Of a stretch of DNA of 64,000 bases, positions 27,639-57,103 are shown in pieces. The stretch's first letter is position 1. Every line of letters begins with the position of its first letter. The notes below the pieces were generated by a model. That model was not told the origin of the DNA. It did no database searches and saw nothing but the letters and a program-made list of their open reading frames with translations. Source of the stretch: Naegleria gruberi (Eukaryota). Location of the stretch: the NCBI GenBank assembly GCA_000004985.1, contig GG738871.1; one strand, 5' to 3'. A program made the translations under genes and the position numbers.

Positions 27639-30600
27639 ATGGTTACTGGAGGCAATCTTTCAGTATCTTGCTTTAAACAAGATGTAAAATCAGTTAGAGG
27701 CCTCATTGTCCTTCTCTTGTTGATTCTCTGTTTGACAACAATTGAGAAATGTTGTGGATATTACTACACAATGAATACTGTTGGTACCTTCACTTCTGGA
27801 ACCACCTTGTATCAAATGGACAAGTCCAAATTCTTCGCTAACAGATTCTACGTAGCAACAAGTGGAGGTCTTCAGTATTTCACTGTATCAAGTGGTGTGG
27901 CAAATCCAAGTAATTCTTATGTGTATAGTGGTGGGTTTCAAACTACCAGTATGGCAAATGTTGTTGTCAGAAGTACATCATCAAGTAAAGATGATGTTTT
28001 TTCTGGTACCATTAACACCTCCACTTGGAGGTATGGTTCAATAGCCAGTTCAACCACTACTGGTAATTCACTCACCAGTTGTGGCGTTATTGTTGCTGGT
28101 GTAAAACTCGATGCAAGCTCTACAACTTTTTCTGTGATTGGCAATGGTGTTGTGGGTACATTAACAATGACAACAGGTGGTAGTGCATCTTGTTCTGCAG
28201 TTACCTCATTTACAGGAGTTTCTGGCACAAGTACCACGCCATCTACTGATGGCACAGGTAGCGCAGCTACTGTTTACTCTAGTGGTACTCATGACATTAC
28301 CAAAAATTCAACATCTGGTGTAAGTATGAGAAAATTCAATTAATTAGATCTAACAACTGGCAGGTTTATTATTTTACTGAGGATTCAAAGATTAGAAAGG
28401 TTGTTTCAACTACTATCACAACTCTGGTAGGAGGAACTACTGGTACAGTGACAGATGGTACTCTCTCCTCTGCTACAGTTAAAAATCCAAGTTTCATGTC
28501 CATCTTGGGTGCAGGTGTAAGTTTTATTGCATTGTTATGATATATTAAACTGTTAACAGCTTGTATTTTCGGATACTGGTAGTAATAGAATTAGAGTTTT
28601 GGATACAGCCAATGAAGAAGTTGTTACTATTGCTGGTGGTGGCTCAACTACCCCATCAGGTACTGCTTCACTATCTGGTGCAGCAACAGGTTTTTCTTTA
28701 ACTAGCCCAAGAGGCATTTATGTGGACACTGATGACAGTATTTATTTTGTTGAAGGAATTTATGTTAGAAAGCTTGTCTATTCTTGTGAAGCAAATGAAA
28801 TTTATCAAGCAGGCTCATTCCCACCATGTGCTTGTAATACTACTGCTGGTTATGTGAGATCTGGAACTTCTTGCGTACCTACCTGTTCCAATTGTAATGT
28901 CAATCAAACATGTACTGGTCCAGAAACTTGTTCTTGTAAGAGTGGATATTCAGGAACAGATTGTTCTGCTTTTACCTGTTTTGGTGTAGCTCAAGATTCT
29001 ACATCTGTTTGTAATTCTAAAGGATATTGTGTTGCACCTGACACGTGTATATGTAGTGATACCTCCACTTTCTTTGGGTCAAATTGTAATGTGACTTATT
29101 GTAATTCTATTCCATCAACGAGTGGTAGTGTTTGTTCAGGACATGGAAGTTGTACTGATTATAATACTTGTACTTGTAGTGATACCAATTCATGGACAGG
29201 ATCTGATTGTGGAACACCTGTATGTGCAGTTGTGAGTGGAGGTGTTTGTTCTGGAAGAGGTAGTTGTACAGCTCCAAATATTTGCACTTGTAATGAACCA
29301 TCAAAATATGGTGGATCTTCATGTGAAATTCCAAAATGTAATGGAACACTTCAAGGCAATTCTGGTGTTTGCAATGGAAGAGGTTCTTGTATTGATGTTG
29401 ATACTTGTCAATGCACTGTTCCAACCTCTTGGGGTGGTTCATTCTGTGAAAAACCATACTGCTCTGGAATTTTACAAGGTGCAGCTGGTGTTTGTTCAAA
29501 TAGAGGAGTTTGTTCATCTCCTGATTCTTGTGTTTGTAATGAACAAACAAAGTATGGTGGTTCAAATTGTCAACTTGTCAAATGTGGAGGTTATTTGGAA
29601 ACAGACTCTGCTGTTTGTAACAAGAATGGTTCATGTATTGCTGTTGATACTTGTTCCTGTAATTCAAATTATGGTGGTTCAGATTGTCAATATCCAAAGT
29701 GTAATGGCATTGCTTCGAATAGTGGTAGTGTTTGTAATTCACAAGGATCATGTGTTGCACCAAATGTTTGTGTCTGTAATTCAAATTATGCTGGACCATT
29801 ATGCGAATATCCAAAATGTAATGGCGTAGCTTCCAATGATGCAAGTGTTTGCAATTCGAATGGAACTTGTACTGGTGTTAATACTTGTGTTTGTAATGTT
29901 AACTATACAGGATCATATTGTCAATATCCAAAATGTAATGGAATATCTTCCAATGATGCAAGTGTTTGTAATAACAAAGGTGGTAATTGTATTGCACCAA
30001 ATGTTTGTTCATGTAATTCAAGTTATACTGGTCAATTCTGTCAATTCCCAAAGTGTAATGGTATTGGATCCAATGATGCAAGTGTTTGTAATGCAAATGG
30101 TACTTGTATTGGAATTAATGTTTGTTCATGCAATTCAAATTATGCTGGTCCATATTGTCAATATCCAAAATGTAATGGTATTGCTTCAAATAGTGGTAGT
30201 GTTTGTAATTCACAAGGATCATGTGTTGCACCAAATGTTTGCGCCTGTAATTCAAATTATGCTGGTACATATTGTGATAAACCAAGATGTGGAACCTTTT
30301 ATAAGGGAGATGCTTCTGTTTGTAATTCGAGAGGTAGTTGTGATGCTGTTGATAGTTGTACTTGTAGTGATACATCTTCTTGGGGTGGTAATTTGTGTCA
30401 ATATCCAAAATGTAATGGTGTTCTTTCAAATATTGGAACTGTTTGTAGCAGTAGAGGTACTTGTCAATCTCCAAACAATTGTTCATGCACTGATCCAAAT
30501 TCATATGGTGGTTCATATTGTGAAAAAGCAAAATGTTATGGAATTCTTCAAGGAGATTCAAATGTTTGCAGTGGACATGGTACTTGTAGTGGTGTGAATC

Positions 30601-32542
30601 AATGTTCATGCAGTGCTGGATATGGAGGTGAACAATGTCAATATCCAAAATGTTTCAATATTTTGAGTAATGAAACAACAGTTTGTAACAATAGAAACGG
30701 TACTTGTACTGCACCTGACACTTGTTCATGTAATAATGGATGGACTGGAAGCAAGTGTGATGTTGCCATTTGTTTTTCAATTCTCTCCAATTCAACAAGT
30801 GTTTGTTCAAACAAGAGAGGTAATTGTGTCACACCAGATAATTGTGTTTGTAAAAGTCAATATTCAGGTTCTCAATGTGAATATACCACTTGTTCTGGAA
30901 TAAGATCAGATCAACATCGACAGTATGTTATGGAAATGGTCAATGTATTGATTATTTACTTGTAATTGTACAACTGGTTATGGACCATCCAATGTATGTC
31001 AATATCCAATTTGTGGTGGTTATTTAGCAAATGATACCAGAGTTTGTAACAATTCAAGAGGTGTTTGTTCCAAACCAAATACATGTAGACCATTAGATCC
31101 CGTATGTTATGGTAAAGCTCAGAATAATTCAATGGTTTGCAGTGGAAATGGAGCATGTGTTGATTGGGATTATTGTGAATGTAAAACTGGTTTCAATGGA
31201 AATGAATGTCAAAATTGGGAATGTTATGGAAAGAATTATACCAACTCAAATGTTTGTAACAATAGAAATGGTACCTGTTCATCTGTGAATAATTGTGTTT
31301 GCAACAGTGGATGGTATGGAAATGAATGTACAGTTCCAATGTGTAATGGAATTCTTGCTAATTCATCTCTCATTTGTAACAATAGAAATGGTACCTGCTC
31401 CAAACCAGGTGCATGTCAATGTAATACTGGATACACAGGACCTGATTGCTCCATTCCAATTTGTTATGGAAAATTAGGCAAGTGACACAAGTAATGTTTG
31501 TTCAGGAAGAGCAGAATGTATTGGTTATAACAAGTGTAATTGTGACACTTCCAAGTATAGTGGTTCACAATGTGAATATTTCAAATGTTTTGGTATTCCA
31601 TCAAATGATGCTTCAGTTTGCAGCAGAAACGGAACATGCTCTGGAGTGAATCAATGTTCTTGTAATTATGGTTATGGTTCTTCAAATTGTGACATTTTCA
31701 CATGTTCAAACGTTCTTGCCACCGATTCGAGTGTTTGCACTGGAAAGGGTGTATGTTATGGAATTGACAAGTGTTCATGTGATTCAGGATATTTTGGATC
31801 AAATTGTGAAATTATCTCCTGTTATGGAATTCCAAAGTCCAACAATACTGTATGTGGAGGAGTTGGTGAATGTTCACAACTTGATACATGTGTTTGTGGA
31901 AGCAATTATAGAGGATCAATGTGTGAATTATCTTACACCTCTTCATCTCAAGCAACACTTCAATTCAATAATACGAATGAATATGTGAATGAACAATTCA
32001 CAAGCATGGCCACTTTGACAATTAATAATCCTCTCTTCGGTCAATATTATTTGAGAAGAAGTGTTCAAGTTGTTGTTTCATTTGAAATTAATTCACAATT
32101 CAGTTATTCTGAAACACTTTATATTGAAAATGGAGTTTCATCTGTTTCATTAATGGTGAAATCGTTGAGTCAAACTGGTACATTGAAAGCATCTGCTCAA
32201 TTAATTGATAATAGTACATTAATTTCCATTTCAGATAGCATTCAATCTTCAAATAGCATTACAATTCAAAATAGACCTATTGTTGTTCCATCCACAACGA
32301 CATCCACAATCAAACCAACAACCTCTGCACAAACAAGTAGAGCTGTTATCGATACAGGAAGTAATGGTGGAGCCATTGCAGCTGGTATCATTGTTCCAGT
32401 GGCAGTTATTGGAATTGGAGGTGGTGTCACTGCAGCCATTGTCACAGCAGTTGTTTTGTTAAAGAAGAAGGCTGCTGCAGCTGCTGCCAAAGAAATTACA
32501 CATGCTCAACACGTCAATGTTGAACTAGCTGAAGGTTTCTAA
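27639..32542 (+). pseudogene. NHL-propeller/EGF-repeat membrane protein paralog A. Exons 27639..28319, 28364..28516 and 28560..32542; three frameshifting indels near 30913, 30956 and 31480 relative to paralog B.
   Basis: Same architecture as B (44914..49716). 28860-32542 is ~98% identical to 46030-49716 at nucleotide level, but reading requires frames 0, 1 and 2 (ORFs 28599..30965, 31132..31485, 31646..32542). Could be a recent pseudogene or assembly indels. Confidence 0.55.
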
Positions 32543-32791
32543 TCTTGTTGATAAAAATTCATTACTGCTTTCTCCAAAATATTTTCAATGAAGTCATAAA
32601 GTTGATTTCCAAAACCAATAACTTACATCTTGTATTAAACCTTTATCTTGTTAGAGTTGGCAACATAATGATTTTTCATATTTATTTGGATGTTGTTTTG
32701 TAAACACACTTGTCGAATCAATCCATTGATTTTTGACAAGATCAACACAGTAGTAGCCCGATTAGTCCCTCCATTTTCCATTATAAAAAAA

Positions 32792-34560
32792 ATGCAACAA
32801 CAACAACCTCGCTCAATGATGACATTCATCTTCCATTTCATAATGACAATATGTGTCGTCGTCGTATCATTGATGTTGAATCAAAGTGGTGGTGTAAACG
32901 GAGCAGTGTATCAAGTGAGTGATGCGGTTACTTTGTGGAATACCTTTTCTAAACTACAGGCTGGTATGTACAAGACTCATGACCTATTACATATTATTTA
33001 ACATGGAATGTGCTTGATGATCGGTTATTATTATGGTTGGTGTTGTTTCACATATTGTGTGTGTGGCGCTTGTAATCTTTGTTACTTACATGATTTGCAT
33101 GCTTTTCATAATATCCATGATTGTGTATTTTAAATTTGACTGTGCTCCATATGTTTGGCCAACTTGACAATACTTTTGTGTGAAATTGTGTGTGTGAAAT
33201 GGATGGGTTGTTTGGTGTTTTGATGCTTTTGGTGTTGGTTTTTTTTGCAGGTGATGAAATGGTTATTAGACAAGGAACTTATTCTACATCAACTGGTGGA
33301 TCCTATTATAGACAATTTACATTGAAAGGAACTGAAAGTCAACCAATTAGAGTTTATGCTTTGAAAAACGAAACTGTGGAAATTAAGGGAGATGCAGCTG
33401 GTAGTCAAAATATTCTCAATTTTGATGTTGAATATTTTGTGATGGATAATATTGGGTTCTCACAAGGTAGTCGTGGATTGAGATTTTTAAATTCGAAACA
33501 TTCAGTTTATTCTAATTTGAGAGTTAAAAACACAGGAGATGTTGGTATTGCCATGAATGACGGAAATGCTATTTATCAAAACAATACTTTAAGATATAAT
33601 GAAGTTTCGTATACTGGAGGAACTGGTGAATGTTTCTATTTGGGTTGTAACAATGCTGATTGCAAATTCATTTTCAATTTATTGGAAAATAACTATTGCC
33701 ACCACACATCTACCACCTCCCAAGGAGATGGTATTGAAATCAAAGCTGGAAGTTATGGAAATCTTGTCAGAAACAATGTCATTCATGATGGAAAGTATCC
33801 AGGCATTACCTTGTACAGCACTTATGTGTCTGGTGGTGATGCAGCTGTTGGTATTGCTAATCCAAATATTATTGAAGGAAATATCATTTGGACAGTCGTT
33901 GATAATGGTATACAAGTGACAGGTAATGCAATTATTAGAAATAACATTATTTATAATGCAGGTGCTAGTGGAATTGCCATTCAAGTCAATCAAGGAACTG
34001 TCGAAAATGTCAAAGTATTGCACAATACAGTTGTCAAAGCAGGTGCTGCTTGTATTAGAGTGACAAATTCAGGACCAGGAATTGTCATTGCTAATAATGC
34101 TGCCTATTGTGAAGCTACCAATTCAATTTATATTGCTGCTGCATTGCCTGCTGATGGTGTCATTTCAAGAAATGTCATTCAGGGATCGACTAATGTTCAA
34201 GTTGCGAATGGAACTCTCAATATTGGTAAATTCACAACTGATTTCCAAAGTACTAGCGCCTTGCCATATAATGTTTTCCCAGTTACTTCCAGTAATGTGC
34301 TTGGAAAGGCAGATTCAAAGTATGCAACCACTTATGATTTCAATTTTAATACTAGAAATGGACCAACTTATGACTGTGGTGCTTATCAAGCTAATGGAGC
34401 TACTTCAAATCCTGGTTGGATTCCAAAAGCTGGATTCAAGACAACCACAGCTCCTACACCTAATACATCTACTAAGACTAATGGTGCTGCTGTTGGAAGC
34501 TTTGTGTCAACTCTTGCACTTGTTTTCGTTGCACTTGTGGTAATGTTTACTTTGAATTAA
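32792..34560 (+). CDS. Secreted right-handed parallel beta-helix (pectin-lyase-fold, PbH1-repeat) protein with C-terminal hydrophobic GPI-signal-like tail. Exons 32792..32963 and 33251..34560; intron GTATGT...TTTTTTGCAG.
   Basis: Signal peptide MMTFIFHFIMTICVVVVSLML. Beta-helix rungs NNVIHDG, GNIIWTVVDNGIQVTGNAIIRNNIIYNAGASGIAIQVNQGTVENVKVLHNTVVKAGAACIRV, IANNAAY. Thr/Pro stalk, then terminal VSTLALVFVALVVMFTLN. Confidence 0.6.
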
Positions 34561-34798
34561 TTGAATAAAAATGTTTAAACAAATCTGTTTCTGTTCTTTT
34601 TATCTTTTATTTCTTTTTACATTAAATTTTCAACACCACACCGATTTAAACACTGTTGAAAGGCCAAAGTCCTTCTCTGATATTATCCAGTACCATTGTT
34701 ATTTTAATGGTTGAGGGCATTACAACAATAACATATATATAAGAACTTGTGGTTCATTATGTAATTCGGAATTTAAATAGTTTACTGTATTTACAAAT

Positions 34799-36712
34799 CT
34801 AATGTTGCAGGTAATCATGATGAACACGACCAGCAGGCATGATCATGTCAACCTTAAAGTTAAAGGCACCAACAACTTGCTTGACAGGGAGATCACTAAT
34901 TGGAGCGTTAACGTGAGGAATGAGTGCAAGCTTAGCATCTCCCTTATAGGCACTAGTTACATTTAGGTTGGCATGTTCCATTCTAACCAATTGAACAATA
35001 GCTGGATCACCACGAACGTCAGGAATATGCTTTAAGAATAATTGAGGAGTGGACAAGTAGGAAACGACATCTTCGAAAGCCATTCTTTCATACTTGTAGG
35101 ACATTGTACCAGTTGCAACTCTGCAACCATTGCAATCCAATGTACCCTTCAAAGTATCTTGAGTTGGAGCGAATGTAATACCATCACAGAACTTTTGAGG
35201 TAAACCAAGACATTCTCTACCATATGTAATTGGAGATGAAGAATCCAAGAAACTCATAGTGTTAAAGTGGATAGAGTTACCTTCGTTATCAGTACATGGA
35301 ACAATCAAGTCAACCTTGTAATAACTACCAATACCAGTACCATGAGTATTGACGAATTGAAGAATTACAATATTGTCTTCATTTGGAGTGAGTTGATCTG
35401 GAATCTTTTCCAACAAAGATTCTCTATCTGTTACATATTTGATAACCATGTATTCTCTGTCTTGGAGCTTTGAAGCAGATGGCTTATAGGATGGACATGT
35501 TACTGGCATTGCCAATGACTCTTCTGTAATTTTCTTTTCGGTAAAGATTGATCTGTATTGACCTGGTTGGACAAACATTTGGTGGAATTTTTGAGAAACA
35601 GCCTTATTTTCTTCAGTTGGTTCGAGATAATCATGCAAAACATTACCGTATGGCAACAAGATATCAGCCATCATGTGTTTACCTTGAATAACCTTCTTGA
35701 CAGGCAAATCAGCAACTGGTGCATTAACATTTTCAACCAAGTGCAATCTAGCTGGACCTTCAAAGGCAAAATGCAACTTTTTAACTTGCAAGTTATATGA
35801 AACAATTTGGGCAATCTTTGGCTTGAAATCAACATCAGGAATAATCTTCAAATTAATATTGGTCTTTCCCATTGATTTCAAAACAGTATCATGATCAAGT
35901 TCAGTGTGTTTGTAAGCCATTGTACCTTGAGCAACAGTTTCTCCCTTATATTTCATAACACCAACAACTGTATCTTGAATACATTTCATGGATGGGTGAG
36001 CATGTTTTTTCTAATTATATGACACAATTAATATTTCCATTTTGCTTCCGAGATTTAAAACTTACAGGAAAACCCCAAATTTCACGACCTTAATATTTAC
36101 AAGTTATTGACACAAATTAGATAATTGTTGAAATACTACTTACCAGCAGCAATTGGTGGTTCAATATCCAAATACATTTGGAGAGTAAGATTAACTGATT
36201 CTCCATTATAAGTGCAAGGAATGACAATACCTGATTCGGAATACTAACAATTAATTCATCATATATATTAAATTCTCAAAATCATTAATATCACTTACAG
36301 ATCCGAAACCAGAAGAGTCTGGCATGTTAATCCTTTAAAGAAGTTAATATCATTTCTGTAATTAAAAACACATACCATTCATACAATACATGACTATTTT
36401 CATTAGGGACAAGTGGTTCTGGAACCAAAGCACGAAGAGCTTCGGCATCAGTTTCATACGTAACAATAAAGTATTCTCTGTTCTTGAAAAAGTATGGTCC
36501 TAATATCAATATTATTGTAACCGATGAAAATATATGAAATAACAATGATGAATGATAACAAAGATGACAAACTTACCTCTCGGATAAGAAGGAGACATAA
36601 TAGGAGTAGAAGGTAATCCCAAAATCATATCCTTGGTAAATTTACCCTTCTCTTTACCTGGTTTAATAATTGATTTGAATGCTCTAGCAAAAACTGAAGG
36701 TGAAACTCTCAT
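34799..36712 (-). CDS. Tandem double acetoacetate decarboxylase-like (ADC/MppR family) protein. Five exons: 36577..36712, 36376..36499, 36300..36333, 36144..36243, 34799..36010. The start may instead be the upstream ATG at 36772.
   Basis: Domain 1 ([96 protein letters not shown]...DLPVKKV...DYL) aligns along its length with Clostridium ADC ([36 protein letters not shown]...NEPAIAVGRE...DLPVKEI). Domain 2 ([39 protein letters not shown]...DLPVKQV...DYLQH) is a second complete copy. Confidence 0.7.
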
Positions 36713-37173
36713 TGTGTTTACTTGTTCGTTTTTTTTTTCAGTGTGTTGGAAATTAAGAAAACTAGTCCTCACTTAGTTTTTGATCTCGGAGGTTGCAGCC
36801 TGGTGGTGAGGTGGTTAAATGATTCGTTGTTATTATTGCAAGAGTTGGATATTATGCACTGCAGTAGAATTTGCCTGATAAGGAACAGTGGAAACATTTG
36901 AAAAAAAGCGAGAATTTTTCGCGTTTTTTTGTGATTCTCGCCATTTACAGTAGAACTTACTAAGAGGGTGTTGAATAATTCAATGTTCGTTGTAATTGTT
37001 ATGGTGATTGACCTCCATTAATTCAATATCATCTTTCAGATAGACTCTCACATTTTATTTTACGTATCCACTCTGGTTGGCTTAAAGAAGAATCTAACCA
37101 TCTATTATAAAATTCATTAATGTCAAATTTTAAAAACACATTAAGCTAACTTAAAATAACACAATTTAAAACG

Positions 37174-37215
37174 AATGGGGACCAGTGGGAATCATACCAC
37201 TAGACCATGGTCCCT
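37174..37215. other. tRNA-like hairpin fragment (possible tRNA-derived relic), not a complete tRNA.
   Basis: Minus strand reads GGGACCATGGTCTAGTGGTATGATTCCCACTGGTCCC. The TGGTCTAGTGGTATGATTC part matches the D-arm region of tRNA-Glu/Gly, but the anticodon and T arms are absent. Perfect 7-bp and 4-bp stems. Confidence 0.2.
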
Positions 37216-37517
37216 TACATCAATAATGTGACTGTAAGACATGTAATCTGTTTCCATTTTTGTTTGAAACAAACAAGGGTGTTGTGGGGTTAATTAATTT
37301 TTTGGCTGGCAAGTTGATGTACAATCATGTTGACATTTTGTTATGAAATTGAAAAGCTTAAATAAAATTTGTTGTTTGTTGCAGATGGGATTCATTGAAG
37401 AATGGATTTTTTGCTGTTTTTTTAACTTATTGGAAGAGGTTGAACATTTAATGATACAATGATTGAGTTTATTATTCACATTTGTTTTAATATAAATAGA
37501 GATACAATGATATATAA

Positions 37518-39612
37518 TTAGTGTTCATATAAAGTGGCGAGATTAGAAATAACTTGTTGCTTAACTTGTTCACTTTCAACTGCGAGGACAATCTTTCTAA
37601 AGACCTTCTTTTTCTTCTTCTTTTGATTGTTGAGGGATTTCAAATTTTCTTCAACTGAAACTTCTTCATCTTCTGTTGGAGCTGATGAAGCAGCTTGTTG
37701 ACGAGTCTTTTCAGTTTCGGCCAAATACTTGGTGAGAGCTTTACCAAAAGCAACACCCAATTTAGAGGAGGAAACTTCATCGTCCTTCTTTAACTTTTTA
37801 AAGAATAATTCTTCACACAATGGAAGACCTAGACTACCAACAGTATCTTGTTTCAAAGCTTGAATCAATGCAGAAACATAGGTTTCAACCAATGAATCCA
37901 AACTAGCATCAATACCTTCTTCTTCCTTATAGGCAACAGCAGTAGCATTGAAGAGATATCTATCAAATTCAGGATCAGCCTTTTCTTCTTCAGTCAATTC
38001 AACTGTAGAGACAGAGTGTTGAAGAGCTCCCTTTCCTTGATTGGCTTGTTGGAGTTTCTTTTCAGTGGACTTTTCAGGTTCCTTGACTTCAATACGTGGT
38101 CTTTCAGCAGATTGCAATCCTTCAAATTTACGAAGAGTAATCAATACATCGAGAATGGCATCAACAAAGAGGCCCTTAACACCTTGTGGATTAACAACAA
38201 TGTTAACCAACTTCTTTTCTTCAATGTGCTTAGTGGAACATAATCCTAAATATTGGAAGAATTCCTTAGCAATTTCCAAGTTTGCCTTTGGATTGGCTCC
38301 ATCAGAAAGAATGTGAGCAATCTTGAACTTGTCACCAACAACTTCCAATTCACCAACATAGAGCAATTTCTTGCCCTCTTTTTGAACAATAAAGTATTGA
38401 CCTCTATCATTATAGAATCCATAAACTGAATCAGTATCAAAAGAGAAGCTATGTTTCATCAATTCTTCATAGGATAACATGAGTAAATTTTCTGGAACTA
38501 CTTGCCAAGCACCTTGTTCCATTTCTTCCTTTCTCTTTTGTAACTTTTTAAATCTGGAATATCTTTCCAAATCAGCTTCTCTTTCTTCCTTTGTCTTTTT
38601 ACCTCTTGAACGAACATCAAGTTTAAGCTTTTTCAAATCATTAGCTTTGAGGAATTGTTCATCATCTTCAGTCAATTCTTTTGGCTTTCTTCTAACCTTA
38701 ATTTGTCTAACATTAGACAATTTTGAAACCAATTCCTTCTCCGATTCCAAACTAGCAACTTGCTTATTTTGATTTGGAGTCAATTGTTTAATATGTTCCC
38801 AAACCTTCTCAATCACAATGGTTTGTTTGTACAATTTTCTACAATCAATACCACGAGATTTGAACAAGACTTTTTCAGAGGCTGTTGTTGGTTGATCTTC
38901 TTCATTATTGGCGCCAGAATTTGATGCCTGTTGATTGAGTGCGTAGGTAGCTGAATTGGCTCCGTGTGTAGAGGCATCGTGACGAGCGTACAATTGATTC
39001 AACAAGGCTTCCCATACCACTTCGTGATGGACAATGGTAGAGATACGGAATCGACGACATGTAAGTTCAATGCTCAGGGCAATGTCACGTGCTGAGAGGA
39101 AGGAGAAGATGTTGGCGAGAACGTGATCATTGGATCCACTTTCTGTGATTGGACTTTAAAAGTTGGATCGAATTGAATAATCAATATAATTATTTTGTTG
39201 TTTATATATTATTATTATTATTATCATCATCATCATTAAACAATTAATAATAATAACAAATAAAAATTATATTATTAATATTAATTAGTTAATTAGTTAA
39301 TGATTATTATAAAACTCACGTAAAAACACCCAAATCTTTAGGTTTCGAAACTTTAAACTTTTCTTCACCTGCATCTCTTTCAATGACCATAGTAATGGTT
39401 TGATTATTCTTTACTGATAAATCCCACAAGGAAATCTCATTGGATGTTAATTCTACATTGTTAAAATAACAAATCACTTTATCTGTTGGTGTCAAGTTGG
39501 TATGTTGATGGACAAGACGTTTAATGTCAGCGATTGAGGTTGAGTTTTCAACATCATCAAATTTTAGTGAATCTGCAATGTTGGCACCTAAGAGTCTGAT
39601 GAAGAGTCTCAT
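37518..39612 (-). CDS. Ubiquitin-like-domain plus F-box protein with a large C-terminal domain of unknown function and Lys-rich C-terminus. Exons 39320..39612 and 37518..39153; 166-nt AT-rich intron GTGAGT...AAAG.
   Basis: Exon 1 reads MRLFIRLLGANIADSLKFDDVENSTSIADIKRLVHQHTNLTPTDKVICYFNNVELTSNEISLWDLSVKNNQTITMVIERDAG (beta-grasp-like). Exon 2 starts PITESGSNDHVLANIFSFLSARDIALSIELTCRRFRISTIVHHEVVWEALL (F-box). Confidence 0.5.
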
Positions 39613-40022
39613 TTTGTGTGGAGTATATTGCAGGTTGTTGTTGTGGATTTTTTTTTTGTGTAAAGTCGTTACAGTTTGTCGAGTTGAAAGATGACAGCGA
39701 AATGATGGTTGTCAAAAGAGGAATTTTTTGATTACAGAAGAACTTTTTGATGCTTGAAGAACCTGAATGGCAACACCTCATTTGACTCTCAATTTTTATG
39801 TATTTAATATTAATAGGTGATTATTCTAAATGTTTATTCGAAAGTGGGTGTGAAAACTATGAGAGAAAGGTCAATAACAATTTCTGATTCCAACAATCAA
39901 GTTTCACATATATTCCAAGTTCTTTCGATTACTTTATTCGAAACCAATCAACAAACAAGCTCAACTGGAAGATTTTGAAATTCAACTTTCCGCTGCTTTC
40001 ACCCATCACCACTCAACAAAAA

Positions 40023-41446
40023 ATGACTCGATTCAAAAGATTTTCAATCTTTGGCTCAGGATCAAAGAGAAACACAACCCGAGGTTCGTATATCACTAAT
40101 TTCCATTCGCTCATGACGAATTAATTGCTTCATCTCTATTCATCATCATTAATTTCTCAACAATATTTCATTCCGATGATGATAATATATTTTTTATGAT
40201 GAAATAATATTTTGCTGATTCTGATTTTTTTAATGATGATGAATAATATTAATAATAATAATTAATTACAGATTTGTTGTCGGATGAAGAAAGATGGGCA
40301 CAAGAAGAGGAAGAAAAGAAGAAACTCCTTCAAGTATCATTAATACAAAACGAAGAGATGAAGAAGGATGTTGAAACATTGTTGGACAACAAGATGAGAA
40401 ATTGGGTGAATGCAACTGAAAAGAATAGATTGTATCAATCGATAGTGGTCGATAGTTTGAGTGAGGAAGAAAAGAATCATGTCAATTATTGTCGATCCAA
40501 GTATTTGAAATTGAAAAATCAGATACAAATTGGAAATGAAACAATTACAATACTGACACAGAATAGGACTGTGAGTGAGAGATTTTTCTACATGTTTTTC
40601 AATCCAAGTATTTTAGAGATACCTGTAGATTGGAAGGTTGGATTAAAACCATTCATGAAGATTAGATTATTGTTCACACCAGTTCAGGTTGGAGAGGTGA
40701 CTAATTTTCATGCCTTGCTGTTGGTTGGATGTTGGTGTTTGGAGTGGGATAAATCATCTTCTCTGGTGATTGTTAAACAGTTGGATATTACTAGAGTGTA
40801 TTTTGCTATTGATTTGGAGAGATTGACAAGTGAACAAGCTATTCATGAGTGCTTTAATAAGATTTCACAAGAGTGTTGTTTGTGGAATGGATCTAAGGAG
40901 TTCAATGCTAAATCTTGTAATAATCAACATTGTAAGTATATTGTGATGAACTTGTTTTAAAATGAATGAATATCTAATATGAATATATTCATAGTCATTC
41001 TTGCCTTGTTGGATAAATTGAAAATTTCACACAACTTGAAAGGATTATCAAAGATTTATTTTGACACATTGCTGGAAAATGGATCAAGTGCAATGACATT
41101 GAAATTATCGGATGAACTGAAAGAACTACTCAAGATTGATTCAATTACATTTAATACACATCAAGAATTGGACCAATTTACAAAAACAATACACGATTCG
41201 AATCCGTACTATTTTTCACAATACATTTCTGATGAATTGTTGTTGAAATGCTTTGATGAACAATTTTGGTATCTGAGAGATGCCAATGCCAACAATACAA
41301 ATGCTCCACTGATGGAAAATGAAGAATGTCAATGCTACTTTAACAAGAATCAAACTAATTATAACGAGTATGTCAATAAGGGAAAGACTGTAAATAATGT
41401 CTTTTGTTCAAGAAGTTTAATTCCACCAATGCCACTCAGATTTTAA
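40023..41446 (+). CDS. Protein of unknown function. Exons 40023..40083, 40272..40931 and 40995..41446.
   Basis: MTRFKRFSIFGSGSKRNTTR/DLLSDEERWAQEEEEKKKLL...SCNNQH/FILALLDKLKISHNLKGL... The splice sites (GTTCGT...CAG, GTAAGT...ATAG) restore a single frame across ORFs 40274..40960 and 40979..41446. No recognisable domain. Confidence 0.45.
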
Positions 41447-41574
41447 TAAATTATTATTATTAACTAAAACATTCTTTGTGATAGAGATCAATAAATATAT
41501 TGAGAAATATTCATCATAACAGACTCACAAGTTTTATTTCATTGACAAAATTGGTTTCAAAATTGTTCCTTCAC

Positions 41575-42765
41575 TTATTGCTTGTAGGTATCAACTGGCT
41601 TCTTATAGGTATCGACTGGCTTCTTGTAAGTGTCAACCTTCTTTGGTGGCTTATAAGTATCGGTCTTCTTTGGTGGCTTGTAGGTATCAACCTTAGTACA
41701 AACTCTCTTCTTCTTAGCACAGACACTCTTATCAGCGTGCTTTCTACAGACTCTCTTACCTCCAACAAAGTTGTACTTGACACAGATCTTTTGACCTGGT
41801 GACTTCTTGACACAATGCTTCTTGAATGATCTCTTAATACATCTTGGCTTCAATGTCTTGTATTGAGTACAATATGGCTTGGCAACATAGTCACAACAGA
41901 ACTTATCTTCTTTGTAAGCCTTACAAACTCTAACCTTTTCTTTGAGATCACAGAATTTGCTTGGAGTCCACTTGGTACAGAACTTGGTCTTTTGCTTGGC
42001 AACGCAATACTTTCTTTGGACAACCTTAACACATTTCTTTTCATAACCAATCTTCTTGGCAAACTTGACGTTTTCATATTTGGTACAGGTCTTCTTCTTG
42101 GCATATTCAACACAAATGGTACGATGCTTCTTTTCCAAAACTTGCTTATAGTAATGATCGATCCAACCCTTGTAATGTTTCTTACTGACTGGAACCCATT
42201 TAGCAACAGTTCTTGAGAGTTTCTTATATTTGGCACAATATTGATGAACAGAGTATTTGGCACATCTCTTCTTATGGAAATACTTAATCTTTGGAACGTA
42301 GGTTTCAGCAGCACATCTTGATGACTTGTCATACTTGGTACAAATGAAATGATAAGCATATTCATCACAAGCATTATTCTTTCCGTGGTGTTTGCACAAT
42401 TCCTTCCATTCATATTTGGCACAAATCTTGTGCTTAGTAACCTTTGAACAGAATTGCTTATAACCGTGACCCAAACAAATCTTTTCAGCTTTGCTGTACT
42501 TGTCACACTTGTGAGTCTTCTTATATTCCAAACATTTACCCTTTCCAACAGTCTTCCAATCGCAGCACTCTTTCTTGGTACCAACCCATTCATAATCAAC
42601 ACATTTACCTTGGATAGTCTTGTAGTGAGTACACTTGTTGTAGCAATACTCTTGATGATCAGAATAGGTATCAACCTTCTTGGAAGGAGCAGGAGCTGGG
42701 TTTGCAAGAACCATACTTGCTGCCAATACACTCAAAACGATTGCAATGATTATACTTGTTTTCAT
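41575..42765 (-). CDS. Secreted, highly basic Lys/Cys/Tyr-rich repeat protein with C-terminal KPPKK(T/V)DTY / KKPVDTY repeats.
   Basis: Signal peptide MKTSIIIAIVLSVLAASMVLA. More than 20 Cys in recurring (K/H)xC(x)KY motifs (CDKY, CAKY, CTKY, CVEY, CTQY). Tail is VDTYKPPKKTDTYKPPKKVDTYKKPVDTYKKPVDTYKQ. Single 396-aa ORF. Confidence 0.6.
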   Translation of the reverse strand: MKTSIIIAIVLSVLAASMVLANPAPAPSKKVDTYSDHQEYCYNKCTHYKTIQGKCVDYEWVGTKKECCDWKTVGKGKCLEYKKTHKCDKYSKAEKICLGHGYKQFCSKVTKHKICAKYEWKELCKHHGKNNACDEYAYHFICTKYDKSSRCAAETYVPKIKYFHKKRCAKYSVHQYCAKYKKLSRTVAKWVPVSKKHYKGWIDHYYKQVLEKKHRTICVEYAKKKTCTKYENVKFAKKIGYEKKCVKVVQRKYCVAKQKTKFCTKWTPSKFCDLKEKVRVCKAYKEDKFCCDYVAKPYCTQYKTLKPRCIKRSFKKHCVKKSPGQKICVKYNFVGGKRVCRKHADKSVCAKKKRVCTKVDTYKPPKKTDTYKPPKKVDTYKKPVDTYKKPVDTYKQ

Positions 42766-43146
42766 TTTGTTTTTTTGATGTTTGTTCTGGATGAGTTGGT
42801 GTTTGACTTTTTATACGAAATTCAATGAAAGAATGAAGAAGCAAACAAGTGTCGACTATCAATACAAATACGTGTTTTGTGAAATTATGCTATTGATTCA
42901 TATTTGTAACTTTTCGTGAATGTTTGAGTTATTCCCTAAAATGGTTAGAAAGGTGAAGTACAATATTAAAATATTAATTTTCTAAAAATTTCTAAAATCC
43001 TCCATAATTCGTTTGAACCGTTTCCTCCAATCATTCCCATCATTAAATTACAAAATCTACTCTCAATAATCTTAATAAATAGATGAACTTTAAATTTCTA
43101 ATATGGCCATATTAATTGTCAATAAAAACGAAATAGAAATTACCTA

Positions 43147-44483
43147 CTATTCAAAGTTTTTTCTATCACAGTGTACCAACTTTTCCACAGCATCGGGTCT
43201 TTCTCTACAGTAGAGTCCTAACTTGAAAATTTCATTAGAGGCTCTTAATAAACCATCTGAGTGAAATTGATCTCTAGTTAAAGTATTTCGTTCCATTACA
43301 TAATTCTTCATTGGCTTGTAATATTCGAGCTTGTGTACTTGGAGTCTACAAATTGGACAAGAATTATTTACAAGAATCTTATCAAATGAGAAAATTTCAG
43401 GTTTTTGAGTGAAAAATCCAGAGTCATCCTCATCTCCAATCATCTCTTCGTCTTCCATCTTCTCTGCAAATTCTGAAACACAACCAGAACAAAAGCAGAC
43501 GTGATGACAAGGAATACATCTGTATTCACATGGATTATCTCTACAAATGACACAATTTTCACTAGCAAGATTGAAATCATCCTCTAAAATGGTCACTGCT
43601 CTAGTACTGCTATCATTTTCAACTTGTGAATTATTTCCTTGATTCGTTAATGAGGGTAATAGCTATGGTTGAATTGTTCCAATTATTATTTGATATTTCA
43701 TTTCAAAATCATTCCAAAACATACATTTACAACTTTTGCCAATTCATTTTCCAAATATTCCTTATACTTTTTCAATTGTGAAAGATTCATTCGTGATATA
43801 TTATTGGCCACTCGTGTGATCCTCTGATTTCCCAATGTAGTAATTAATAGTTCAATACTATTCATTGTTCTCCTCTCTCTATCAATCTGATCCAATGTCT
43901 TGTACAAATGAATTAGGTGATATCTAACCTGATAGCAAGAGACAATCATCAGAATGGCATACAGAGTATTTCGGAGGGAATCTTCAAAATAAATTCCATT
44001 AATTGCAATATAATACACAATAAACCAAGTATGTGGAACCACAAAGTACAAGCAACAGGCAGTCAGTGGCGTAATCAATTTATAAAAGGCCATTCCCACA
44101 TATCCCATCAATCCATAAATTACAACTCTATCCAATGCAACTTCCGATAATCTCTTACCCATTTGCTCACTCATAAACAGAACATTAGCACCACCATTAA
44201 TTGATTGATAATTATCATCAGCAGCAGCACCACTACTACCACTACTACTATTACCAACACTACCATTCATCATTAAATTATTTTCCAATGATGTCGACGG
44301 TGGTGAGGATGATGTAAGAAAAAGCGAGGGAACATTAAAAAAATATACAGCAATCATGTAGAACAAGATGGAACGCACTACTGGATTGGTGAGGAAGGTT
44401 ATTGTGGGGATTGCTACTCGAAGTATACTTCTAGAAGATTCCGATCGATTTGATGCAACTATGCGTCCTAATAATTGATCCAT
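43147..44483 (-). CDS. Membrane-anchored RING-finger (C3HC4) E3 ubiquitin ligase-like protein. Exons 43725..44483 and 43147..43662; 62-nt GTATGT...ATAG intron.
   Basis: N-terminal exon has several hydrophobic helices (FLTNPVVRSILFYMIAVYFFNVPSLFL, VIYGLMGYVGMAFYKLITPL, FVVPHTWFIVYYIAINGIY). It splices in frame into ...NDSSTRAVTILEDDFNLASENCVICRDNPCEYRCIPCHHVCFCSGCVSEF...CPICR. Confidence 0.6.
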
Positions 44484-44913
44484 TTTTTAATTAGATAATA
44501 TATTATTGTGCTGAAATAATTGAATTATATATTATTATTAATTTATTATATTTAATATGCTATATAATTGAGTTTAGTTCGAATAATTTATTGCTCAGTT
44601 ATAATTTGCTGTGAATCCAATAATCAAAATTTTTATGGTATGACTTCTTCATAAGGAGTTTGTGTTAAATCATAATAACACATGATGATTGTAAAATTCA
44701 TCTTTCCAAAAGATCAATTTTTAACTGAAGGATCTCCAAATCCTCCATGACTGGAGTACATGCGCATTTTCAAGAGTGACACTTGTCATGCACTAAAAAC
44801 CAAGAGGAAAAACCCTTTCTTTATTGAGAATGCTAAGGTGTTAGTGCATTTAACCAGAGCAATAGGGCAAAGAAAGAAACGGTTCATAGGATAAGCACAC
44901 AAAAAAAAACAAT

Positions 44914-47900
44914 ATGAAACTAGTGAGCTTTCCCTATCATTTGTTGATTGCTGCTTGTGTAGTGTTACTTCTTGGCAAAGTTAGTGCATGGAGATATTCT
45001 GTGAAAACTCTTGCTACAGGTCTAGGCAGTATTTCTCAAATTGTTGGCTCTCCAAAATATATTTATGTTACACTTGGCTCCAGTTCAAAGAAGATTTATG
45101 CCTACGATAGACAATTATTGGCCACTCAGTCTGTACAAACATTGCAACAAGTCCACGATATAACAGCATCATCAAACAATATTGGTTATATTGCTTATCA
45201 TGGCAATGATTCGAATGACGCTGAAGTGATATCAGTAGCTGGCAATAATTTTCCAAACAATGTGGGTTTGTACTGGTTTACATGCTCATCAACCTGTTCC
45301 ACTCCAACACCCTTCTCTTATAATATAAGGGTCTCAGGAATTAGATCCCTAGGAATTGAGAACTCAACTCCCAAACTTTACATAACAAGACAAACAGCAA
45401 TTTACACTGGCACTCCTTCAGCAAATGCTATTGTATCAACAACTGGAACAATCAATTTTAAAGCTTTCAATGATGTTGATTATATTGGCAATACAGTAAG
45501 TTTTAATTATTTTGCAAATAGGTAACATTGGTTTAGGTTTATTTTACTGACTCAGGTGGAAACCTAAAAATTGCAACAAGTTCAACACCATTAATCAGTG
45601 TAGGCACATTTAGTGATGGTGCCAGTGGTACTGCTCGTTTATCTTCAGGCACAACATTCATCTCTGCACAGTTCAATAAGGTATGTAGTTATGAACAATA
45701 TGTTGTTGGAATAATTTTAAAAGATTTTTATCTCAGACACTGGAAACAGTAGAATTAGACTTTATGATATTGCTACAGGAATTACAACTACAATAGCTGG
45801 TGATCCTTCTAAATCAACAGCTGGAACAACAACTTTCAGTTTATCCGACGTACCAACTAATTACAAATTCACACCAACAGGTATTTGGATTGATAACTCT
45901 AATGGTATCATTTATTTTGCAGACACCAGTACCTTGAGAGCTTTAGTTCCAACTTGTAACAGTACTACAGAAGATCAATCTTCAACTTACCCTTTCTGTA
46001 CTTGTAAAACTGGATATTCATTGGTAAATGGAGATTGTGTTGCATCCACTAGTTGTTCTCCAGGATTGTGTAATGACAATCAAACATGTACTGGCCCAGA
46101 AACTTGTTCTTGTAAGAGTGGATATTATGGAACAAATTGTGATAATTATGACTGTTATGGAACTCAGAAGGATAATCTTTCTGTATGTAATGGAAAAGGT
46201 GTTTGCGTTTCTCCAAACACGTGTATTTGCACCAATGCAAACTATGATGGCTTTAATTGTAATATTACAACTTGTAATTCTATTCCATCAACGAGTGGTA
46301 GTGTTTGTTCTGGACATGGAAGTTGTACTGATTATAATACTTGTGCTTGTAGTGATACCAATTCATGGACAGGATCTGATTGTGGAACACCTGTATGTGC
46401 AGCTGTGAGTGGAGGTGTTTGTTCTGGAAGAGGTAGTTGTACAGCTCCAAATATTTGTACTTGTAATGAACCATCAAAATATGGTGGATCTTCATGTGAA
46501 ATTCCAAAATGTAATGGAACACTTCAAGGCAATTCTGGTGTTTGCAATGGAAGAGGTTCTTGTATTGATGTTGATACTTGTCAATGCACTGTTCCAACCT
46601 CTTGGGGTGGTTCATTCTGTGAAAAACCATACTGCTCTGGAATTTTACAAGGTGCAGCTGGTGTTTGTTCAAATAGAGGTGTTTGTTCATCTCCTGATTC
46701 TTGTGTTTGTAATGAACAAACAAAGTATGGTGGTTCAAATTGTCAACTTGTTAAATGTGGAGGTTATTTAGAAACAGACTCTGCTGTTTGTAACAAGAAT
46801 GGTTCATGTATTGCTGTTGATACTTGTTCCTGTAATTCAAATTATGATGGCCAATTTTGTCAATATCCAAAATGTAATGGCATTGCTTCAAATAGTGGTA
46901 GTGTTTGTAATTCACAAGGATCATGTGTTGCACCAAATGTCTGCTCTTGTTTCACAAATTATGCTGGACCATTATGCGAATATCCAAAATGTAATGGCGT
47001 AGCTTCCAATGATGCAAGTGTTTGTAGCTCGAATGGTACCTGTACTGGTGTTAATACTTGTGTTTGTAATGTTAACTATACAGGATCATATTGTCAATAT
47101 CCAAAATGTAATGGAATATCTTCAAACGATGCAAGTGTCTGTAATAACAAAGGTGGTAATTGTATTGCACCAAATGTTTGTTCATGTAATTCAAGTTATA
47201 CTGGTCAATTCTGTCAATTCCCAAAGTGTAATGGTATTGGATCCAATGATGCAAGTGTTTGTAGTGCAAATGGTACTTGTATTGGAATTAATATTTGTTC
47301 ATGCAATTCAAATTATGCTGGTCCATATTGTCAGTATCCAAAATGTAATGGCATTGCTTCAAATAGTGGTAGTGTTTGTAATTCACAAGGATCATGTGTT
47401 GCACCAAATGTTTGCGCCTGTAATTCAAATTATGGTGGTACATATTGTGATAAACCAAGATGTGGAACCTTTTACAAGGGAGATGCTTCTGTTTGTAATT
47501 CGAGAGGTAGTTGTGATGCTGTTGATAGTTGTACTTGTAGTGATACTTCTTCTTGGGGTGGCAATTTGTGTCAATATCCAAAATGTAATGGTGTTCTTTC
47601 AAATATTGGAACTGTTTGTAGCAGTAGAGGTACTTGTCAATCTCCAAACAATTGTTCATGCACTGATCCAAATTCATATGGTGGTTCATATTGTGAAAAA
47701 GCAAAATGTTATGGAATTCTTCAAGGAGATTCAAATGTTTGTAGTGGACATGGTACTTGTAGTGGTGTGAATCAATGTTCATGTAGTGCTGGATATGGAG
47801 GTGAACAATGTCAATATCCAAAATGTTTCAATATTTTGAGTAATGAAACAACAGTTTGTAACAATAGAAACGGTACTTGTACTGCTCCTGACACTTGTTC

Positions 47901-49716
47901 ATGTAAAAATGGATGGACTGGAAGCAAGTGTGATGTTGCCATTTGTTATTCAATTCTCTCCAATTCAACAAGTGTTTGTTCAAACAAGAGAGGTAATTGT
48001 GTCACACCAGATAATTGTGTTTGTAAAAGTCAATATTCAGGTTCTCAATGTGAATATACCACTTGTTCTGGAATAAGATCAGATCAAACATCGACAGTAT
48101 GTTATGGAAATGGTCAATGTATTGATTATAATACTTGTAATTGTACAACTGGTTATGGACCATCCAATGTATGTCAATATCCAATTTGTGGTGGTTATTT
48201 AGCAAATGATGCCAGAGTTTGTAACAATTCAAGAGGTGTTTGTTCCAAACCAAATACATGTAGACCATTAGATCCCGTATGTTATGGTAAAGCTCAGAAT
48301 AATTCAATGGTTTGCAGTGGAAATGGAGCATGCGTTGATTGGGATTATTGTGAATGTAAAACTGGTTTCAATGGAAATGAATGTCAAAATTGGGAATGTT
48401 ATGGAAAGAATTATACCAACTCAAATGTCTGTAACAATGGAAATGGTACCTGTTCATCTGTGAATAATTGTGTTTGTAACAGTGGATGGTATGGAAACGA
48501 ATGTACAGTTCCAATGTGTAATGGAATTCTTGGCAATTCATCTCTCGTTTGTAACAATAGAAATGGTACCTGCTCCAAACCAGGTGCATGTCAATGTAAT
48601 ACTGGATACACAGGACCTGATTGCTCCATTCCAATTTGTTATGGAAAATTAGGCACTGATACAAGTAATGTTTGTTCAGGAAGAGCAGAATGTATTGGTT
48701 ATAACAAGTGTAATTGTGACACTTCCAAGTATAGTGGTTCACAATGTGAATATTTCAAATGTTTTGGTATTCCATCAAATGATGCTTCAGTTTGCAGCAG
48801 AAACGGAACATGCTCTGGAGTGAATCAATGTTCTTGTAATTATGGTTATGGTTCTTCAAATTGTGACACTTTCACATGTTCAAATGTTCTTGCCACCAAT
48901 TCAAGTGTTTGCAGTGGAAAGGGTGTATGTTATGGAATTGACAAGTGTTCATGTGATTCAGGATATTTCAGTACCAATTGCGAGCTATTTTCTTGTTATG
49001 GAATTCCAAAGTCCAACAATACTGTATGTGGAGGAGTTGGTGAATGTTCACAACTTGATACATGTGTTTGTGGAAGCAATTATAGAGGATCAATGTGTGA
49101 ATTATCTTACACCTCTTCATCTCAAGCAACACTTCAATTCAATAATACGAATGAATATGTGAATGAACAATTCACAAGCATGGCCACTTTGACAATTAAT
49201 AATCCTCTCTTCGGTCAATATTATTTGAGAAGAAGTGTTCAAGTTGTTGTTTCATTCCAAATTAATTCACAATTCAGTTATTCTGAAACACTTTATATTG
49301 AAAATGGAGTTTCATCTGTTTCATTAATGGTGAAATCATTGAGTCAAACTGGTACATTGAAAGCATCTGCTCAATTAATTGATAATAGTACATTGATTTC
49401 CATTTCAGATAGTATTCAATCTTCAAATAGCATTACAATTCAAAATAGACCTATTGTTGTTCCATCCACAAAGACATCCACAACCAAACCAACAACCTCT
49501 GCACAAACAAGTAGAGCTGTTATCGATACAGGAAGTAATGGTGGAGCCATTGCAGCTGGTATCATTGTTCCAGTGGCAGTTATTGGAATTGGAGGTGGTG
49601 TCACTGCAGCCATTGTCACAGCAGTTGTTTTATTAAAGAAGAAGGCTGCTGCAGCTGCTGCCAAAGAAATTGCACATGCCCAACACGTCAATGTTGAACT
49701 AGCTGAAGGTTTCTAA
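44914..49716 (+). CDS. NHL-propeller/EGF-repeat type I membrane glycoprotein, paralog B (intact). Exons 44914..45495, 45546..45680 and 45724..49716.
   Basis: Signal peptide MKLVSFPYHLLIAACVVLLLGKVSA. NHL-like blades (VYFTDSGGNLKIA; IFISDTGNSRIRLYDIATGITTTIAG; GIWIDNSNGIIYFADTSTL). About 35 EGF/tenascin-like Cys modules, a Cys-free ~170-aa domain, Ser/Thr stalk, helix GGAIAAGIIVPVAVIGIGGGVTAAIVTAVVLL, and tail KKKAAAAAAKEIAHAQHVNVELAEGF. Introns GTAAGT...TTTAG and GTATGT...AAAAG. Confidence 0.8.
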
Positions 49717-49863
49717 TTGTTCATTATGATAGTTTGTCAATAATAAACTTTAAATTTTGATGTTTAGTGAAATGATGCTCAATTATTTAAATGGTTCGTA
49801 ATTGTCTCTCCTAACAAAATAGAAACTACAACCAAATCACAGGGCATCACAACACAAAATAAA

Positions 49864-55635: not shown

Positions 55636-57103
55636 TTATAGAAAATCATTTTCCTCTAAGGCACAAGGTGCTGCGTCTTCGGCAATGTGAATATGAGACT
55701 TTCCTCCAGGTCCATTCAGTTGCATCTTATTTCCACAAATTGTTGATGTCTTGGTTGATTCCAAAACAATGGCATTTCTGGTGTGTCCACTAAAGACACT
55801 TCTCTCAATTCTCATAGAGGCCTCACCTTTGCAGAGAATGGCATTTCCATCATTCTTTTGAAAGAGACTTTTGGTTACTTCACACAGAGTGTCATCTTCG
55901 AGTCGCATTCCATGAAGTTTGTTAAATTCCACGTGGCACTCGGTCATGATTAATTTGGGAGGATCACAAATTGGTTTCTTACTACCAGTCGATGGCAGTG
56001 GCGGTGGAGGTGGTTGAGTGTTTGATTCAATTGATGCTGTCGAAGGAGTTGTAGAAACTGCTGCATCAGTTGTGTTTTTCACAGGTGGAATGTATAATCT
56101 ATTCTTTACAGTAACACCAACTCCATAACTTGCTCTCAAATGGACATGTTGCAGAGTGCATGATCCTGAAACAATTTCCAAACACGACGCCGATTCATAA
56201 AATAAAATACTATCCCTAGCAGCATTCTGTGTGAGTGTGACATGTTCAAATTTGACACTTCCCCCACCATCCAATAAACGTTGTTTTTCCAATTGTTGAA
56301 TTGTTAAATTCTCATTAAAAGAGTCCACTCTCAAAATTGATTTTGAGCTATCCGAAGAGGCAATATGTACAAGTGATGAATCTGGATAAACTCCACGAAT
56401 GGTGAGTGGTTTCTTAATGACAACTGTTTCAGGAACTTTGTAAATTCCACTTCTCAAAACAACATGGTCTCCCTCCTTTGCAAAATCAACAGCTCTCTGT
56501 ATATCATGAAAAGTACAATCTTCACTAAAATCTGGATCAACTACATGAAGTCTGTAATCTGAATTCCTAACAGATGAATCATTAATTTCCTTTATCCAAT
56601 TGCTTTGGTCATTTTCATCCTCACAAGCAAGATAATAAGTACGATGAGGTGAAATGATTTTAATACCAAATTTCTTTTTGTAATTCAATTCGGCTGCTTG
56701 ACAAGTTAATCCCTGAACATTAATCATTCCTTTGGGTTTGGTATCTTTCTGTGATACATAGTAATATAATTTTCCTCTATTTTTTAAATTATTAATAAGT
56801 ATTGTAGGTTAAAGATGAGAATATAGTATTCGAAACACATACTGATGCAAAATACATAATCTCTCGTGCCATGTTTTAATGGAACCTCCTCGTTTGGTCT
56901 ATTCATTTCAAATATATTATGAAAATGTATAACGGTTATTATTATTGAAATTGTTCCGAATACAAATTGTTTCGAATAAAACCTACCAGTGTTCCTACAA
57001 AGTCGTGGTCTCTCATCAATTCAGAAGCAGATACTTTGGGTGGTTCCTCCACTATCTCCTTCCACTTCTTACCAGCCTTCTTTACTTTATCTTGTGATGA
57101 CAT
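55636..57103 (-). CDS. PH-domain protein with C-terminal right-handed beta-helix (PbH1/CASH-like) domain. Exons 56987..57103, 56843..56898 and 55636..56776.
   Basis: MSSQDKVKKAGKKWKEIVEEPPKVSASELMRDHDFVGTL/TKRGGSIKTWHERLCILHQ/GKLYYVSQKDTKPKGMINVQGLTCQAAELNYKKKFGIKIISPHRTYYLACEDENDQSNWIKEIN is a complete PH domain split by two introns (88 and 66 nt). Then repetitive beta-helix rungs and a Pro-rich linker PPPPPLP. Confidence 0.65.

Follow-up and report, generated by a model that had tools for sequence, protein, structure and literature searches.

Probable interlocus gene conversion at the 3′ ends of two old paralogs for putative EGF-repeat surface proteins in Naegleria gruberi

Concerted evolution by interlocus gene conversion is well known from the human fetal globin genes HBG1/HBG2, from hsp70 and tubulin duplicates, and from many families of surface proteins. 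In the classical duplicates, a near-identical segment lies within diverged paralogs, and the step in divergence extends to synonymous positions. Homogenisation leaves out the flanks, and in the tree of the tract, copies group by species instead of by ortholog. The same features are found in a pair of genes, here called A and B, in a 64,000-nucleotide (nt) stretch of contig GG738871.1 of N. gruberi (assembly GCA_000004985.1; hereafter the window). A and B belong to a cluster of three paralogs in the order C, A, B, all on the plus strand, and encode large modular proteins of a putative surface type. Unlike the classical pairs, A and B share a tract that is limited to the 3′ 72% of a 4.8-kb gene, their loci are about 17 kb apart, and one partner is frameshifted. 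The A/B case is one of standard concerted evolution; the process is well known, and the gene family is apparently unannotated.

Two further systems are instructive for comparison. In the accessible part of PMC2115128, the flagellar alpha-tubulin family of N. gruberi offers a precedent for near-identical dispersed copies, and within that part the term "gene conversion" occurs solely in the reference list. As far as this source goes, the alpha-tubulin copies are similar over the entire coding regions of a housekeeping gene, whereas A and B form a partial mosaic of a modular surface protein. The variant surface glycoprotein (VSG) genes of Trypanosoma brucei, as presented in the accessible part of PMC3170485, resemble A/B in that RAD51-type homologous recombination moves parts of surface genes between family members, a conserved C-terminal part contrasts with a variable N-terminal part, and the family holds broken copies. 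However, the variable part of VSG is copied into an expression site in a somatic, programmed process, as far as the same part of that source describes it, whereas in A/B the constant part would have been homogenised in the germline and the heads left untouched. For A and B, nothing points to switching or to an expression site.

Self-BLAST of the window gave one dominant same-strand match, A 28893-32543 versus B 46069-49717, with 96.0% identity over 3,657 columns (E = 0). An identity profile, obtained by scoring the global A/B alignment per block of 100 columns, resolves this match into zones. Matching columns are at the noise level (31-57%) 5′ of about 28850/46017, reach 63-75% over A 28850-29140, and rise to 87-100%, mostly 96-100%, from about 29140 to 32544/49718. 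Right after the TAA stop codon, the identity falls to about 40%. Only 92 columns differ within A 29095-32544, three of them 1-base-pair (bp) indels, corresponding to 97.3% identity. A first-pass annotation, made from the sequence alone, had reported near-identical distal parts of about 3.4 kb, and this is borne out at 97.3% over 3,446 nt. Its start of the near-identical part at 29090/46260 was also essentially right, and with the outgroup described below we place the switch between A 29098 and 29102, equivalent to B 46271-46275. The step along the A/B alignment is thus sharp, the tract boundary can be located, and divergence is not uniform. Upstream of the boundary lie a Cys-rich linker and the first two to three EGF modules, and about 24 of the about 27 modules are inside the tract (Table 1). 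The earlier statement that the first ten or so modules differ between the genes therefore needs correction to these two to three.

The step in identity recurs in synonymous divergence (dS). Between A and B, dS amounts to 2.0 for exon 1, 1.6 for the NHL-like part, and 1.0 for the EGF modules preceding the tract (64% nt identity), but 0.069 for the tract itself (1,149 codons), where nonsynonymous divergence (dN) is 0.014 and their ratio, omega, is 0.20. This step in dS cannot be explained by selection on the protein. The divergence of the upstream exons that had been noticed earlier is confirmed not only by the noise-level match in the profile, 31-57% of columns, but also by an amino acid (aa) identity of 22% and the dS of about 2 in exon 1. 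No A/B similarity was detected in the 1 kb upstream or the 1 kb downstream of the genes at E < 0.01 (word size 7). Likewise, the intron sequences of A and B do not align, although their positions match.

An outgroup, X, places these values on a tree. X is a B-ortholog of a related Naegleria on the Logan contig SRR25266747_33735 (L002), found by an exhaustive HMMER search with B exon 1 (P0171, 57% identity). It carries two introns at the same positions as A and B, and its upstream neighbour is homologous to that of B. Since the intron positions are the same in A, B, and X, the paralogy of the whole genes is old. In the head, B and X share 53-76% of amino acids, as against 23-35% for A and B and 21-32% for A and X. 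In the part of the tract covered by X, by contrast, A and B are 96% identical (264 codons), and X is 71-72% identical to either of them (248 codons). Informative sites supporting AB, AX, and BX number 106, 106, and 328 upstream versus 160, 11, and 8 in the tract (Fisher P = 4e-62), and third codon positions alone show the same topology switch between head and tract. The head topology is ((B,X),A), and the tract topology is ((A,B),X). This conflict indicates that the duplication predates the split from X and that the tails coalesce long after it. No A-type head was found in the metagenome scan. The dS between B and X is 0.64 in the tract, far below the A-B or A-X values of the head, and 0.82-1.05 in the adjacent orthologous parts. 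Since the B-X value in the tract resembles that of the adjacent orthologous parts, a B-type tail probably overwrote the tail of A, with B as the donor.

We consider it very likely, on the strength of these sequence comparisons, that A and B are old paralogs whose 3′ ends were later homogenised by interlocus gene conversion. The first-pass annotation had left the choice between ongoing gene conversion and a recent partial duplication. The former is favoured by the step in dS, the missing homology of flanks and introns, the old shared introns, and the tree conflict. The latter is not, since homologous sequence was replaced in frame and no flank was carried along. In the proposed course of events, the whole gene would have been duplicated long ago, before the split from the X lineage, and the pattern suggests that, much later, non-reciprocal homologous recombination overwrote the 3′ 3.45 kb of one gene with the corresponding part of the other. 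The 3′ limit of the tract at the stop codon may correspond to the end of recognisable homology between the loci; an unrelated neighbour lies within 150-250 bp 3′ of each gene. At the 5′ limit, which falls at an EGF-module boundary, A/B divergence rises steeply, and the sequence upstream may be too diverged for heteroduplex formation, or selection may keep the heads different. Shorter exchanges, of 40 nt between A and B, of about 250 nt between A/B and C, and in the form of patches, seem to recur in the family. The outcome would be receptors or adhesins with different heads on a common stalk, anchor, and tail.

These shorter exchanges can be seen at several places. The 40-nt A/B tract in the diverged zone lies where sites shared by B and X otherwise dominate, and it is surrounded by a wider 72-nt block (about A 28899-28970) of 93% A/B identity. 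In the older tract common to C and A/B, dS between B and C is 0.28, compared with 0.87 and 1.45 in the flanking parts. Inside the main tract, A/B differences occur in clusters of up to 15 per 100 nt, a density reached in 0 of 5,000 simulations. The polarity of the multi-nucleotide patches was taken from C and X, and no donors for them were found within the window. The short tracts and patches point, at the level of sequence, to repeated exchange events in the family, and their different ages agree with the earlier description of the conversion as ongoing.

Table 1 Coordinates of the three paralogs, the tracts of probable conversion, and the frameshifts in the window
Feature	Position	Strand	Remarks
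Main tract of probable conversion, A copy	29099..32544	+	3,446 nt, 97.3% identical to B
Main tract of probable conversion, B copy	46272..49718	+	3,447 nt; ends 2 nt past the TAA stop codon
Short A/B tract of probable conversion, in the diverged zone	A 28910..28949 = B 46086-46125	+	40 nt; 19 A=B sites vs 1 A=X and 0 B=X sites
Older tract common to C and A/B	C 2565..2812; A 31263-31510; B 48438-48684	+	About 250 nt; 92-96% identity vs 60-80% in flanks
Largest multi-nucleotide patch in the main tract	A 31795..31819	+	12 changed bases within 25 nt, for the most part derived in B
Similar patches	29674-29683; 29768-29781; 29852-29867	+	
Gene A, whole	27639-32542	+	Three exons
Gene A exon 1, with signal peptide and diverged head	27639..28319	+	Open reading frame from ATG up to a GTAAGT donor
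Gene A exon 2, NHL-like blade	28364..28516	+	Introns of 44 nt and 43 nt on either side; frame restored when spliced at the GT..AG boundaries
Gene A exon 3, NHL-like blade, about 27 EGF modules, stalk, transmembrane segment, tail	28560..32542	+	Three 1-bp indels break the frame
Gene A frameshift 1	30912..30913	+	One A missing, CAAAC -> CAAC; B and C agree
Gene A frameshift 2	30955..30956	+	1-bp deletion and adjacent substitution; makes a stop codon at 30963-30965
Gene A frameshift 3	31478..31486	+	Extra base at 31480, at the switch from B-like to C-like sequence
Gene B, whole	44914-49716	+	Three exons, 1,572-aa product
Gene B exon 1, with signal peptide and diverged head	44914..45495	+	57% identity to P0171 (related Naegleria)
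Gene B exon 2, NHL-like blade	45537..45680	+	
Gene B exon 3	45724..49716	+	Frame intact; completes 1,572 aa
Gene B, EGF region	45997-49098		
Gene B, stalk	49099-49449		
Gene B, transmembrane segment	49546-49635		
Gene B, cytoplasmic tail	49636-49713		
Gene C, third paralog	1..4107	+	5′ end cut by the window edge; EGF modules, stalk, transmembrane segment, "...ELAEGY" tail
Gene C frameshift, +1	Near 470-472 (window 462-480)	+	ACATCACTGG

Gene conversion has to be weighed against a single recent structural event, in which a copy-paste partial duplication or an unequal crossover would have produced a chimeric gene without homologous replacement. One long and fairly uniform tract with a background divergence of about 1.5% fits such a single event. 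However, an unequal crossover would bring the downstream flank of the donor with it, whereas the similarity of A and B ends 2 nt past the stop codon. The copied segment also occupies, in frame, the homologous place in a gene already paralogous upstream, as seen from the 64% nt identity before the tract, the same introns, and the separate 40-nt tract. No duplication affects the genes that lie between A and B. Since a common flank is missing and homologous sequence was replaced in frame, duplication or unequal crossover is disfavoured, and we regard a structural event of this kind as improbable.

A and B each have two short GT-AG introns at homologous positions, and a tblastn search of the window for further family fragments brought up nothing beyond C, A, and B. 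Within gene C there is a higher-order internal repeat (window 3-1727), with copies of about 600 bp that equal five EGF modules and are 81-93% identical, which suggests recent intragenic duplication or homogenisation. In the gene pair described by the first-pass annotation, B is intact, and the frame of A is broken by three frameshifts that had been overlooked. All three are derived in A, since B and C agree at these positions. Read literally, A stops at 30965 and encodes 1,079 aa without a transmembrane (TM) segment, and with the indels repaired, its frame is open to the normal stop codon. Omega is 0.21 downstream of the first A frameshift versus 0.197 upstream, and the A and B lineages have gained similar numbers of derived substitutions. 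The equal omega, the open repaired frame, and the even split argue against a long-standing decay of A. Synonymous and nonsynonymous substitutions in the A lineage number 7 and 8 overall, 0 and 4 inside the 570-nt shifted stretch, and 7 and 4 elsewhere, a nonsynonymous excess in the shifted stretch with a hypergeometric P of about 0.05.

The frameshift in C lies in the sequence ACATCACTGG, which resembles a hybrid of two variants of the internal repeat of about 600 bp, ACTCACTGG at 105 and ACATATTGG at 1069. Two of the four frameshifts in A and C sit where one repeat variant changes to another, and these could be imprecise conversion junctions or the product of a chimeric consensus. For A, real frameshifts and consensus errors seem about equally probable. 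This N. gruberi genome is an approximately 8x Sanger draft. Real frameshifts would make A a copy that was broken, or truncated to a secreted form, only very recently.

An assembly artefact would explain the pair by a misplaced or duplicated tail, such as a collapsed repeat or the haplotype of an allele joined to the wrong head. The repetitive nature of the region with its 117-nt modules, the frameshifts of A and C, two of them at repeat-variant switches, and the absence of the A, B, and C genes from the protein collection searched would all be in line with such an artefact. On the other hand, the 92 differences, with their synonymous excess (omega 0.20) and even split between the lineages, do not have the pattern of errors, and either tail runs without a break into unique sequence at both ends. 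Two misjoins would be needed, one exactly at the stop codon and the other in frame at a module boundary, and the window is without Ns. We therefore consider an artefact even less probable than a structural event. Regarding the absence from databases, no near-identical entry for A, B, or C exists in a collection of 5.8 billion proteins or in a 50% representative library, whereas the neighbouring open reading frame (ORF) at 34799-35989 on the minus strand has a 100% identical N. gruberi predicted protein. Genes C, A, and B are probably missing from the reference annotation. An exact look-up of the window ORFs and the N. gruberi neighbour protein in other assemblies gave no match.

The remaining alternative, a gene pair of uniform age with a tail under strong purifying selection and a head under fast or positive selection, would suit the low omega of the tract (0.20) but is refuted by the dS values and the outgroup test, since the same step is found at synonymous sites (0.069 versus 1.0-2.0), informative third positions change topology, and the divergence of X from either tail greatly exceeds that between the two tails.

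Several points nevertheless weigh against gene conversion as we propose it. No signature of GC-biased conversion is seen, with a GC content at third codon positions of 0.145-0.149 in the tract versus 0.23 in the heads, although such a signature is a common rather than a defining mark of converted sequence. The outgroup is a single B-type fragment that extends from the head into the tract for 735 nt, and the proposed direction from donor to recipient would fail if the species of X homogenises its tails too. Both copies are taken from the assembled sequence, and a chimeric consensus in the repeats could lie behind the frameshifts in A and C.

The architecture of the predicted proteins agrees with the earlier assignment to a surface-protein family. 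The product of gene B begins with a signal peptide and a head of about 300 aa. About 27 EGF modules follow, each with six cysteines and a length of about 39 aa, and after them come the stalk (about 120 aa), a linker rich in Ser/Thr, the TM segment, and a tail of 26 aa with an ELAEGF end. A regular expression counts 24-25 EGF modules of about 39 aa, encoded by a repeat unit of 117 nt. EGF_2 (PF07974) matches B with 43.3 bits and the A fragment with 22.9 bits, above the cut-off of 22.1. TEN_NHL (PF25021) reaches 24.7 bits in A, under its cut-off of 27.1, and has no match in B. A likeness to NHL blades is seen in the C-terminal third of the head, where BLAST of both heads (aa of about 170-345) matches several blades of NHL-annotated proteins at 1e-7 to 4e-9. 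The exon-1 heads of A and B had no Pfam match. P0172 gave a weak HMMER match to the exon-1 head, but it is an LRR/NACHT protein and probably spurious as a relative. Based on the signal peptide, the EGF_2 matches, the TM segment, and the short tail, A and B appear to encode type I membrane proteins, putatively receptors or adhesins.

Teneurin-type EGF modules (PF07974, PF25024, PF23106) are also combined with NHL-type blades (PF25021, PF01436) in the ectodomains of teneurins and of Naegleria receptor kinases with NHL and EGF domains (P0012, P0015, P0020). Unlike these, A and B are of type I, with the head N-terminal to the EGF modules, no YD shell, no kinase, and a cytoplasmic tail of about 26 aa. 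Teneurins were recognised by a type II orientation, EGF modules before the NHL domain, a YD-repeat shell, and a C-terminal toxin-like domain. A and B have an N-terminal signal peptide, the head before the EGF modules, and a C-terminal TM segment, with no YD or toxin domains detected, and were therefore not classified as teneurins. The N. lovaniensis protein C9374_011222 (P0001) has the same architecture as A and B and is encoded by a single-copy gene at a different locus. P0001 and P0169, the latter from an ENA metagenome, lie on L001 and L003 in a common neighbourhood with p450 and 2-oxoacid dehydrogenase E2 genes, unlike the N. gruberi cluster. Both are single copies, and no second mosaic pair was found at these two loci. 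The family thus has at least one stable single-copy locus away from the C-A-B type of cluster. In the literature, we found no report on the A/B/C protein family or on conversion in it.

The neighbourhood of the cluster is of mixed content. About 12 kb with about six unrelated genes separate A from B, among them genes for a beta-helix protein, an acetoacetate-decarboxylase-like protein, a Lys/Cys-rich secreted protein, a RING finger protein, and a TM protein. Right-handed beta-helix (PF13229) proteins are encoded at 33190-34560 on the plus strand and at 55636-56727 on the minus strand. The former gene adjoins the 3′ end of gene A and probably has its signal-peptide exon at about 32780-33000, and the latter carries a PH-domain fragment. 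The ORF at 41575-42765 on the minus strand encodes the Lys/Cys-rich protein, which has 396 aa, C-terminal DTYK(P)PKK repeats, and no Pfam match. This gene is 92% conserved in the fragment from the related Naegleria, far above its neighbours. On that contig, positions 1-319 of L002 correspond to window 41933-42087 and 44320-44491; an inverted fragment of the Lys/Cys-rich gene (92%) lies immediately next to the counterpart of B's upstream neighbour gene. This junction reflects either an interspecies rearrangement or a chimeric Logan contig.

A more far-reaching idea is that C, A, and B constitute a receptor repertoire with variable heads and a constant stalk, in which the broken A and C are kept as sequence reservoirs, and frequent short-patch conversion with imprecise, sometimes frameshifting junctions builds mosaic EGF stalks or heads. 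We would give this idea little credence, marginally less than the structural event discussed above. If true, the repertoire would be the counterpart in a free-living amoeba of the pseudogene-templated diversification of VSG and avian immunoglobulin genes, possibly serving the recognition of prey, mates, or kin.

The A/B case reveals no new mechanism. Its practical consequences are that the tail sequences of the family are unusable for orthology inference and that the reference protein set apparently lacks three genes of 1,300-1,600 codons. With tract boundaries placed at the base pair and an outgroup test, the pair provides a worked example and a marker of ectopic recombination activity in Naegleria. 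In the biology of the organism, it would represent homologous recombination shaping a large surface-protein family in a free-living heterolobosean.

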